Notes under the pieces: model-generated | What the model saw: only the letters and a program-made list of their open reading frames with translations | What the model was told of the DNA's origin: nothing | Databases searched by the model: none | Assembly: GCA_025999215.1 (NCBI GenBank) | Contig: AP024679.1 | Span: 711,457-775,456 of the forward strand | DNA: 64,000 nt | Source of the DNA: Candidatus Dojkabacteria bacterium | GTDB taxonomy: Bacteria; Patescibacteriota; Dojkabacteria; J137 | Direction: 5' to 3' | Position numbers and translations under genes: made by a program | Shown here: piece by piece, positions 37,981 to 43,964 of the stretch | Position numbering within the stretch: the first letter of the stretch is position 1 | How the letters are laid out: each line of letters starts with the position of its first letter

Positions 37981-38385
37981 CTATTTAGATTGACTCAAAG
38001 TCTCCATTATCATGCTCAAAGTTGCAGATACTACACTTAGCACCATAAAAGCCACTGTTCTATCTTCCATTCTAAAGTCAAGACTCTCTATGCCTGTTTC
38101 AACTACTCCGTTTGAAGCAACAGTCAAAAATTCAGTTAAATAAAAGCCAACAAAATAAAATAAAAATGCAGCAACAACTCCAATTAAGATTAATGAACCT
38201 GCATTAACTGGCAGCTTAAAAAACTTCAAAATGATGGGAAGAGATGCCATTAATAAACCAAATAACAATCCTACAAAAATCTTATCAACCATAGTGTTAT
38301 TTCGAACAGCAATGGTATCTTGAAAAAGACTAATCAAGAAAAAAAATAAAAGAGTATTTCTAAGTGTAACGTATAAAAACATCAT
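37981..38385 (-). CDS. Hypothetical membrane protein
   Basis: 134 aa with 4 predicted TM helices. Confidence 0.4.
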   Translation of the reverse strand: MMFLYVTLRNTLLFFFLISLFQDTIAVRNNTMVDKIFVGLLFGLLMASLPIILKFFKLPVNAGSLILIGVVAAFLFYFVGFYLTEFLTVASNGVVETGIESLDFRMEDRTVAFMVLSVVSATLSMIMETLSQSK

Positions 38386-38407: not shown

Positions 38408-39412
38408 TTATCGAATATATCTTCGAATTGATAAATAGCTACTCAATGCTCCCAAGCAAAAACCACACATTGTCAAAATCAAAATAATAATACCATAATG
38501 TACAACACCCAAACTTGGCCAATTTAGCTTTCCTATACTTTCATAAATAAAAATTGTTAAGTTTGACCCTTGATTTACTACAAAAACGAATGTGAATATC
38601 AAACCTAAAATCAGTGAAGAAATCATTGCGCCTATAGCTCCATAAAAACCTCCTTCTAAAATATACGGTGATCTAATAAAAAATAAACTTCCACCAACTA
38701 ATTGCATTACTCCTATTTCTTCCATTTGCCTAGATAACCTAAACTCAACCGTCATAAATGTAAAGAAAAAAATTACAATCAACAACAGTGATATTATCGC
38801 AACTCCAACAATTCTAATAGCAAAGAAAACTTCTCTAAGTTGATCAAGGTTTTCATCATCGACCACTAATTTTATGGGAGGATCATTAGGCTCATCAGAA
38901 TATTGATAATAAACTTCTCCTGGTTTAGCATTTTCACCGGTTTGAATTATTTTGAGCTTTTCGAGTTCTTCCTCAATGTCTCTTTGTATCAAAAGCTTAG
39001 TCTCCTCCAGTTTATCAAGCGAGTACAATTGTATATCAAGACTAGAGGGAAGAGTTTTGTTTTCTCTGGTTCTTAAAACTGCATATGTTTCAGGCCTAAC
39101 CCTTGATGTATAATCACTATATAACTTGTAAGCTTCTTCTTCACTTGTATAGTTAATATTTTTAATATTCTCATACCCTTCCCACTTTTCTCTTAAATTA
39201 TTAACTATTGTTAAGTCCATACCTTCTTCAAAAAATACCAACAAGTTACTTTTCTGTTCAATAAACTGAATGTATAAGTTTGAAACATAAGCAAGAAGTC
39301 CAAAAATTGTAGCCACCAAAAAAGCCATAGTCATAATAGCAATTGAGCCCCAACCAGCCCAACCACTCCTTGATATTTGCTTTCTGGTATTATCTATAAT
39401 TCTCCAAAACAT
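38408..39412 (-). CDS. ftsX: Cell division ABC transporter permease FtsX
   Basis: 334 aa with an FtsX topology: TM1, a large extracytoplasmic domain, then three C-terminal TM helices. It lies directly downstream of ftsE. Confidence 0.75.
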   Translation of the reverse strand: MFWRIIDNTRKQISRSGWAGWGSIAIMTMAFLVATIFGLLAYVSNLYIQFIEQKSNLLVFFEEGMDLTIVNNLREKWEGYENIKNINYTSEEEAYKLYSDYTSRVRPETYAVLRTRENKTLPSSLDIQLYSLDKLEETKLLIQRDIEEELEKLKIIQTGENAKPGEVYYQYSDEPNDPPIKLVVDDENLDQLREVFFAIRIVGVAIISLLLIVIFFFTFMTVEFRLSRQMEEIGVMQLVGGSLFFIRSPYILEGGFYGAIGAMISSLILGLIFTFVFVVNQGSNLTIFIYESIGKLNWPSLGVVHYGIIILILTMCGFCLGALSSYLSIRRYIR

Positions 39413-39416
39413 AAAT

Positions 39417-40685
39417 TTATTGTAATAATTTATTTAATTCATCAATATCTTTTTTACTAATCCCTTCAATTTGTGCCAAATCATTCAAATCTATTTGGTT
39501 TAAATCGCTCACATTTTTATAACCATTATTCATTAAAAGTTTTTTTAATTTTTTGCTTATTTTTAAATCGCTTATATCCTTTTCAGATAAATCTGCTTGC
39601 TTCACAGAAACTTTTTTGTCTTTGGAACTTTTTTTGGTAATTTTTTTATTTTTTTTCTTTGCCTCATTACTTTCTTTTTCTTGAGAATCAACACTATTTG
39701 TTTCTTCACTTTGAGCTTTTACTGGAATTTTTACACCTTTACGTCCAAGTGTAATTTTGAGTTCTATCGGTTTTTTATCAGAATCATTGCTTTCATCATT
39801 TTCACCGCTTGTATTATCAGAAGTATCACTCTTACTTTTTTCTTCATCACTCTCTACTTCTTCTTGAGCTTCTTTTATTTTTTTACTTATCTCAATTTTT
39901 AACTTTTTATGTTTTTCTTCAAAAAAATCTGGCTTTTTCTGTGTATCAACCTCTGTTGCGTCAAGAGTTCCTTTTTCGTAAGCAGAAGTCATTTCATACT
40001 GGCCTTCACTATCATCTCTGATTATTTCTCCTTTATGCATTTGTATTACTCTTTTATTGAGAGAATTTACAATCTCTGTTCCATGAGTAGACATGATAAC
40101 TGTTGTTCCCCATGAATTAATTTTGGTTAAAACTTGTACAATATCCCAGGCACTAGCAGGATCCAAATTTCCAGTTGGCTCATCAGCTATCAAAATTTTA
40201 GGATTATTCGCTATAGCTCTTGCAATAGCAACTCTTTGTTGCTCACCTCCTGACAATTCTCGTGGAAAAGCATCCATTCTATGTTCTAATCCAACAATAT
40301 CCAAAACATATGGAACTGCTTCCTTAATTTCTTTGTTAGACTTGCCAGCAGCTTCCATAGCAAAAGCAACATTTTCATAAACTGTTTTTTCGGGAACTAG
40401 TTTGTAATCTTGAAAAATAACTCCAATCTCTCTTCTAAGCCTATATACTTTTCTTCTTGGTAATTTTGTAATATCTTTATCATCAAAGAAAATTTTTCCT
40501 GTGGTAGGTAATTCATCTCTAATCAACATTTTTATAATGGTTGTTTTACCACTACCTGATGGGCCAATCAAAAAAACAAACTCGCCAGGGTCTATCACAA
40601 AAGAAACATTATTAACCCCAACTATAGAATTTTTATATATTTTAGTTACATTTTTAAATTGAACCATCACTTCAAGTATACACAT
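39417..40685 (-). CDS. ftsE: Cell division ATP-binding protein FtsE with a long K/E/S-rich C-terminal tail ending in a helix-hairpin-helix (RNAP alpha-CTD-like) module
   Basis: Residues 1 to about 230 form a canonical FtsE ABC ATPase (GPSGSGKTT, LSGGEQQRVAIARA, ILIADEPTGNLD). Residues from about 230 to 422 form a low-complexity acidic/basic tail ending LKKLLMNNGYKNVSDLNQIDLNDLAQIEGISKKDIDELNKLL. Confidence 0.8.
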   Translation of the reverse strand: MCILEVMVQFKNVTKIYKNSIVGVNNVSFVIDPGEFVFLIGPSGSGKTTIIKMLIRDELPTTGKIFFDDKDITKLPRRKVYRLRREIGVIFQDYKLVPEKTVYENVAFAMEAAGKSNKEIKEAVPYVLDIVGLEHRMDAFPRELSGGEQQRVAIARAIANNPKILIADEPTGNLDPASAWDIVQVLTKINSWGTTVIMSTHGTEIVNSLNKRVIQMHKGEIIRDDSEGQYEMTSAYEKGTLDATEVDTQKKPDFFEEKHKKLKIEISKKIKEAQEEVESDEEKSKSDTSDNTSGENDESNDSDKKPIELKITLGRKGVKIPVKAQSEETNSVDSQEKESNEAKKKNKKITKKSSKDKKVSVKQADLSEKDISDLKISKKLKKLLMNNGYKNVSDLNQIDLNDLAQIEGISKKDIDELNKLLQ

Positions 40686-42677: not shown

Positions 42678-43964
42678 ATGAGCGATCAAATAGATATAAT
42701 GTCTGCGATAAGACAAATTGCTGCTGAAAGAAAAATTGATCCCGATAAGATTATTGAAGCAATTAAACAAGCAATTAAAACAGGATTTAGAAATGAGTAT
42801 GGAGTTGAAAATTTAGATTTATTAACAGTCGATTTTGAACCAGAAAAAGGGTTTATAGCGGTTTACATTACTAAAAAAGTTGTAAATAAAGTCAATAACC
42901 CTCAGGAAGAAATAAGTTTAAAGGAAGCAAAAGAGCTAGAACCTAATGTTAAAGTTGGCGACGAGCTGCTCATAGATATCACTCCAGAGGGAGATTTTGG
43001 TAGAATCGCTGCCCAAACAGCAAGACAAATAATTTTACAACAATTAAGAGAAGCTGAAAAATCAGCTGCTATTTCTGAAATTAAAGAAAAACTAGGTTCT
43101 ATTGAAAATGTTGTTGTTCAAAGATTTACTGCAAAAAAAGAGGTTATTTGTGAAGTCAACAGAGCGCGTGCTGTAATGCCGCCACACGAGCAAGTACCTA
43201 CTGAATTTTATAAAATTGGCTCACGAATTAAAGTTTTGTTGAAATCCATAGAAGAAGATGAGAGGGGTGAATATGTTTTAATCTCTAGAGCTGATCCGGA
43301 ATTTTTAGAAGAACTGTTTAGGTTAGAAGTTCCAGAAATTGATTCTGGCTCTGTTGAAATTGTAAACATTGCAAGGGAAGCTGGAAGCAGAGCAAAAGTT
43401 GCCGTTAAATCAAATGCTCCTGGAGTTGATCCAATTGGTGCATGCGTAGGTCAAAAAGGTGTCAGAATCAATGCAATTAGTAATGAGTTGAAGTTAGGTA
43501 ACTTTGAAGAAAAACTTGACATAATTTTGTGGGATGAAAATATTGAAGTTTTCTTGTCAAATGCCATTAGACCAGCGGAAGCTATTGAAGCAAAAATTAT
43601 AGATGAAAAGAAAAAACAAGCTTTAATTGTAGTTTCTGATGACCAGCTATCACTAGCAATTGGTAAAGACGGGCAAAATGTAAGACTTTCATCCAAGCTA
43701 ACTGGTTGGGATCTAGATATTGTCGGTGAAAGTGAATATAAAAAACAAAAACAAGGAAATAAAATCTCAAAACCTTCTAAAGATTCAAGTAAAGAAAACA
43801 AAAGCGATCTAGAAAGTTTAGGATTATCATCAAGAATTATTAATGCTCTACAAAAAGTAGGTATAGAAAATTTAGAAGATTTGAGATCCAAAATAGAAAA
43901 TAATGAAAAAATAGAAGGTATCGGAGAAAAATCTTTGGAAGAAATTAAAAAAGCTTTAGTTTAA
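42678..43964 (+). CDS. nusA: Transcription termination/antitermination factor NusA
   Basis: 428 aa. It has the NusA N-terminal domain, an S1 domain, tandem KH domains (GxxG: VGQKGVRI, IGKDGQNV) and a C-terminal HhH (LSSRIINALQKVGIENLEDL). Confidence 0.9.
   Translation: MSDQIDIMSAIRQIAAERKIDPDKIIEAIKQAIKTGFRNEYGVENLDLLTVDFEPEKGFIAVYITKKVVNKVNNPQEEISLKEAKELEPNVKVGDELLIDITPEGDFGRIAAQTARQIILQQLREAEKSAAISEIKEKLGSIENVVVQRFTAKKEVICEVNRARAVMPPHEQVPTEFYKIGSRIKVLLKSIEEDERGEYVLISRADPEFLEELFRLEVPEIDSGSVEIVNIAREAGSRAKVAVKSNAPGVDPIGACVGQKGVRINAISNELKLGNFEEKLDIILWDENIEVFLSNAIRPAEAIEAKIIDEKKKQALIVVSDDQLSLAIGKDGQNVRLSSKLTGWDLDIVGESEYKKQKQGNKISKPSKDSSKENKSDLESLGLSSRIINALQKVGIENLEDLRSKIENNEKIEGIGEKSLEEIKKALV

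Follow-up and report, generated by a model that had tools for sequence, protein, structure and literature searches.

A lineage-specific C-terminal extension of FtsE with an alpha-CTD-like terminal domain in Dojkabacteria

Introduction

FtsE acts as a dimer in the FtsE2X2 complex. Research on bacterial division has yet to settle which cytoplasmic signal fires the FtsEX ATPase and thereby switches on the septal wall hydrolases. Many ABC ATPases bear C-terminal regulatory domains. In MetN, MalK and Uup the accessory domains directly follow the ATPase and have folds other than that described below, and the one in Uup is a DNA-binding C-terminal coiled coil. Small helix-hairpin-helix (HhH) modules at the C-terminus are familiar from the transcription machinery. 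The α subunit of RNA polymerase (RNAP) carries its C-terminal domain (alpha-CTD) on a short linker, and the acidic repeats of NusA mediate protein-protein contacts, AR2 binding the alpha-CTD.

Here we describe an FtsE encoded in a 64,000-nucleotide stretch of a Candidatus Dojkabacteria genome (contig AP024679.1; hereafter the window). The protein has a real, conserved C-terminal extension of about 190 aa, which consists of a charged tether and a small terminal domain. With this tail, the division ATPase has an architecture specific to the Dojkabacteria lineage.

Results

The ftsE coding sequence occupies positions 39417..40685 of the reverse strand (422 aa, with the stop codon at 39417-39419) and is a single unbroken reading frame in the ORF list. 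The FtsE equivalog model TIGR02673, whose cutoff is 264.85 bits, gives 278.2 bits and aligns aa 7-220 with model positions 1-214, the full model. Because the orthologues and the FtsE model both start there, the real start codon may be Met7, at 40667. NCBI holds an identical protein, labelled hypothetical protein, from a Candidatus Dojkabacteria MAG. The initial annotation had pointed to a C-terminal extension of roughly 190 aa, and the intact frame, which runs on well past the equivalog match, bears this out. The ABC ATPase domain (39996..40667, reverse strand; aa 7-230) matches Pfam ABC_tran with an E-value of 2e-37 and is modeled by AF2 with pLDDT >90 throughout. Its catalytic motifs can be read intact in the translation (Walker A GPSGSGKT, signature LSGGEQQR, Walker B ILIADEPT and H-loop STH), and all four are invariant across a family alignment of 89 sequences (A3).

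The membrane partner ftsX (38408..39412, reverse strand; Pfam FtsX and FtsX_ECD) has its ATG 4 nt past the ftsE stop, and the order ftsE then ftsX is kept in 13 related genomes. Directly 3' of ftsX lies a gene for a 134-aa membrane protein (37981..38385, reverse strand) that has no Pfam match; 7 of the 13 related loci have a homologue (29-39% identity) in the same place after ftsX. The same-strand surroundings of ftsE are envelope and division genes (a GT4 glycosyltransferase gene, MurJ and mraZ-rsmH-PBP). Judged by its family match and catalytic motifs, the protein is a bona fide FtsE paired with ftsX, and a role in division is predicted from family and gene context.

Whether orthologues share the tail had been raised as a check, and they do: of the 120 FtsE homologues nearest to the present one, 103 have the terminal module, in most cases 7-12 residues before the C-terminus. 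In all 13 species-level genomes recovered, the module is part of the ftsE ORF, with ftsX next; this figure is a lower bound, since the scan with alignment A2 used one strict peptide pattern. FtsE had been taken to be normally a bare ATPase. That holds for most of a set of 78 more distant FtsE genes, in which the median extension is 4 aa and the terminal module occurs in none, but three of the 78 have long tails, acidic and unrelated to the Dojkabacteria tail. In one sub-group, complete FtsE proteins of 305-347 aa have M1 (see below) and an RPLVV-type motif but no terminal domain at all. Some lineages therefore do without the domain, and function in the tail may reside chiefly in the linear motifs. 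We found no published description of a tailed FtsE in literature on FtsE in Patescibacteria and the Candidate Phyla Radiation, C-terminal extensions, helix-hairpin-helix domains, Dojkabacteria division and PF03118. The suggestion that the architecture was undescribed is in keeping with this; automated Pfam annotation has already flagged PF03118 and PF00005 together on three homologues.

The terminal domain (39420..39584, reverse strand; aa 368-422) includes the peptide LKKLLMNNGYKNVSDLNQIDLNDLAQIEGISKKDIDEL, which is present in the FtsE translation. Searched with the tail alone, PF03118 gives 26.4 bits against a gathering score of 23.8 (E 5.8e-6); with the full-length protein the score is 20.3 bits, and the match is marginal. 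Among orthologous tails, 33 of 69 match PF03118 at E <= 0.01, the best at 9.9e-9. Structure prediction, proposed earlier as a check, returned a disordered linker and a confidently folded terminal domain, with the compact four-helix (HhH)2 fold of the alpha-CTD. The predicted structure and the profile matches place the domain in the alpha-CTD/(HhH)2 fold class. It is alpha-CTD-like and not RpoA, because the N-terminal part of the protein is the ABC ATPase in place of the RpoA assembly domain (PF01193/PF01000).

The likeness first drawn to the alpha-CTD and NusA termini thus stands as to fold class. Within the window, NusA alone has a comparable module; rpoA is not encoded there. This NusA (42678-43964, forward strand) has a single C-terminal domain at 43776-43961, which the FtsE-tail profile matches at E 1.3e-4 (15.9 bits); E. 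coli NusA is matched at E about 1e-3. TIGR01954, the NusA acidic repeat model, gives the FtsE module 17 bits against a cutoff of 48.15. Recent copying from the NusA C-terminal domain of this genome was rejected as the origin of the module, there being no BLASTP alignment and a profile score of only 15.9 bits. One RpoA (P0232), whose alpha-CTD contains GP and resembles the FtsE module, was considered as a possible donor lineage; its contig encodes HypF and bears no sign of a Dojkabacteria origin.

The terminal domain evolves fast, with 24-49% identity among close relatives. Across the family it keeps a recognizable hydrophobic core and conserved surface motifs, among them GPE and IDPEE. The present copy is off consensus: the near-invariant G of the GPE motif is missing, the surface is basic and the hairpin is a canonical G-I-S-K-K. 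Because of this departure, what is deduced for the family may not transfer fully to the present genome.

The linker (39585..39995, reverse strand; aa 231-367) is rich in K, E, D and S and predicted to be disordered, with AF2 pLDDT <50 at residues 247-364. Family linkers are 82-273 aa long (median 168) and about 43% charged (19% K/R, 24% D/E), with a net acidic median charge of -8. The linker was at first read as low-complexity sequence; it is not featureless, and has two short conserved motifs. M1, KHKKLKIEISKKIKE (39870..39914, reverse strand; aa 258-272), has a basic cluster followed by strand-like alternating hydrophobics; in other homologues its consensus is KKKx[FY][KQ]V[KN]L. In the tails of the 120 homologues, the strand-like motif occurs 82 times at 20-40 residues past the ABC domain. 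It is present at 1.03 per tail versus 0.21 +/- 0.05 in shuffled tails, an enrichment of about five-fold at a fixed position. M3, KPIELKITLGRKGVKIPVK (39717..39773, reverse strand; aa 305-323), is the best-conserved element of the tail. Its identity to the close relatives P0002, P0003 and P0004 is 83, 61 and 57%, respectively. In the same three comparisons the terminal domain reaches 49, 35 and 24%, and the linker taken as a whole 44, 40 and 32%. M3 is therefore conserved more strongly than the terminal domain itself. Other orthologues have motifs of a related kind (LHITL, KVKVDLTAK), which in a few of these proteins are located after the HhH domain.

Immediately N-terminal of the terminal domain is a lysine-rich patch, EAKKKNKKITKKSSKDKKVS (39606..39665, reverse strand; aa 341-360), with a net charge of +8. 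Charge windows indicate that it is specific to the present genome, the family mean upstream of the module being about 0. The linkers of many orthologues have an amphipathic GFFSKLFGRK-type segment that recalls membrane-targeting helices and is absent from the present FtsE. An origin of the linker by tandem-repeat expansion was rejected, as the repeats found were short and trivial.

The residues through which the E. coli alpha-CTD contacts DNA (R265, N268, G296, K297, K298 and S299) have no conserved equivalents in the family. Residues were mapped by hand from the HMM alignment to Taq α and the E. coli sequence. At the positions of the "265 determinant" (R265, N268, C269, G296, K298 and S299) the present FtsE has K, K, L, S, K and D. 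Of 69 sequences, 17 have K at the equivalent of R265 and 15 have E, with S and Q found in 8 each, and in most orthologues the second hairpin (G296-S299, G-K-K-S) is replaced by D-P-E-E. The net charge of the module across the family has a median of -4 and falls as low as -13. The initial annotation had envisaged the tail as a tether to DNA or the nucleoid. As a family-wide role this is weak, because the contact residues are not conserved and the module is acidic; the linkers are acidic too. Its other suggestion, a second HhH module or a protein as partner, would fit the data. The present genome and, for the most part, P0002 have Lys or Arg at the equivalents of 264, 265, 267, 268, 297 and 298 and a near-canonical second hairpin, G-I-[ST]-K-[KR]; at 264, 265, 297 and 298 such basic residues are kept in both. 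Since the present copy is atypically basic, non-specific DNA binding may occur in this genome, and a DNA tether is likewise conceivable in P0002, the nearest relative.

Discussion

We propose that the tail docks FtsEX to a putative cytoplasmic partner through tethered modules, a reading to which we assign a probability of about one half. As FtsE works as a dimer in FtsE2X2, each membrane complex would present two flexibly tethered docking domains that reach into the cytoplasm. These would recruit or sense the partner, which would most likely be polymeric or multivalent, the FtsZ/FtsA ring being one example. In this way the tail could couple the ATPase-driven activation of cell-wall hydrolysis by FtsEX to the state of the cytoplasmic division machinery. 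Across the family, a protein partner appears more likely than DNA, because the DNA contacts are not conserved, G-K-K-S gives way to D-P-E-E, and the module and linkers are acidic. In the present genome, the basic surface of the domain might add a non-specific contact with DNA or with an anionic membrane. Counting against docking are the fast evolution of the domain, the sub-group that lacks it, the off-consensus copy found here, and the AF2 model, which places neither motifs nor domain on the ATPase with confidence. The tail points to a direct cytoplasmic input hard-wired into FtsE across a whole candidate-phylum lineage, and the M1 and M3 peptides and the 55-residue domain are usable baits in a search for the partner.

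A tether to the chromosome is the first alternative to be weighed. The domain and the lysine-rich segment would bind DNA non-specifically and tie septal FtsEX to the nucleoid, perhaps as a checkpoint that senses the nucleoid or its segregation. The domain has a DNA-binding (HhH)2 fold, and the basic residues and near-canonical hairpin shared by the present genome and mostly by P0002 are what such a tether would call for. So is the +8 patch directly upstream of the domain, and two tails per complex would lend avidity for a polymer. In a South-western screen, FtsE from Neisseria meningitidis was positive for DNA binding despite having no known motif (PMC2885667). Set against these points are the variable residue at 265, the acidic second hairpin and the negative median charges of module and linker. 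P0004, which belongs to the same sub-clade as the present FtsE, is acidic at the contact positions, and even in the present copy R265, the key minor-groove residue of the alpha-CTD, is Lys and G296 is Ser. On balance we regard a DNA tether as unlikely.

Self-association or regulation in cis would give the tail a different task. Here the terminal domains or the strand motifs of one FtsE dimer would bind one another or pack against the ATPase, controlling dimer closure in the manner of MetN and MalK, or clustering FtsEX. The frequency of C-terminal regulatory domains among ABC ATPases lends this some appeal, and the spacing between the ATPase and M1 is short and fixed, as would be expected if M1 packed on the ATPase or on FtsX. 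The disordered spacer, variable in length over 82-273 residues, is ill suited to rigid allosteric control. AF2, run with 89 homologues, docked neither the motifs nor the terminal domain onto the ATPase at usable confidence. Nor did Pfam match a known regulatory domain of ABC ATPases: a contiguous domain of the MetN/MalK type (NIL, TOBE or CBS) was not found, and about 135 residues with pLDDT <50 intervene between the ATPase and the module. We consider regulation of this kind quite unlikely.

It is more doubtful still that the tail forms a putative link from septal FtsEX to the chromosome or the transcription machinery, whether by non-specific DNA binding of the basic alpha-CTD-like face and the lysine patch in the present genome, or by an HhH-HhH contact of the alpha-CTD/NusA type with RNAP or NusA. 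If true, cell separation in these minimal bacteria would be under an inbuilt checkpoint tied to the nucleoid or to transcription.

The tail might instead be mainly an entropic spacer or polyampholyte, acting through crowding, exclusion or condensates, with the terminal domain a decaying relic that has no specific ligand. The length and sequence of the highly charged linker vary greatly, the domain diverges fast and is missing from one sub-group, and unrelated long acidic tails have arisen independently in three of the 78 distant FtsE genes. A relic would not be expected to persist in 103 of 120 homologues with its hydrophobic core and its GPE and IDPEE motifs, nor to fold confidently in AF2, and M1 and M3 are conserved well above the shuffled expectation. 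We judge this explanation improbable.

An assembly or annotation artefact, with a frameshift or missed stop fusing ftsE to a small downstream gene, had been flagged for checking and is effectively refuted: the linker DNA does contain A7-A8 homopolymer runs prone to indel errors, and the databases include several free-standing tail fragments of 97-217 aa, but these short entries either come from very short contigs or repeat stretches of full-length proteins, the frame is continuous with ftsX adjoining its stop, and the same fusion recurs in over 100 proteins drawn from independent NCBI, JGI, ENA and Logan assemblies, as well as in the 13 species-representative genomes.

Docking by tethered modules, the reading we prefer, can be set beside several known systems. 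Canonical FtsE from E. coli, B. subtilis, M. tuberculosis and S. pneumoniae has the ATPase domain, catalytic motifs, equivalog match and adjoining ftsX in common with the protein described here. It ends a few residues past the ATPase, whereas here 192 extra residues follow, with motifs and a folded domain. MetN, MalK and Uup are likewise ABC ATPases with an extra C-terminal ligand-binding element; FtsE differs in having a long disordered spacer before an alpha-CTD fold. The N-terminal HhH domain of RAD51 and RAD51C is a weaker structural match than the alpha-CTD, and FtsE is a bacterial ABC ATPase without a RecA-type core.

Among division proteins, the C-terminal linker and peptide of FtsZ, ZipA, and the membrane-targeting helix of FtsA offer the same arrangement of a long, variable, low-complexity linker with a terminal docking element. 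None of these is related to the FtsE tail in sequence, and the docking element of FtsE is a folded alpha-CTD-like domain together with strand-like motifs. NusA, with AR1/AR2 and in the form encoded in the window, resembles tailed FtsE in carrying an alpha-CTD-like (HhH)2 module at the C-terminus of a protein other than RpoA, and differs in host protein and cellular context. RNAP α (PF03118), a dimer with two tethered alpha-CTDs, is a parallel in design to the two tails proposed for FtsE2X2. The host there is the α N-terminal domain and here an ABC ATPase, the FtsE tether is about 135 aa long (82-273 in the family), and the 265 determinant is not conserved in FtsE modules, most of which are acidic at the second hairpin. 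Tailed FtsE shows the alpha-CTD fold recruited outside transcription.

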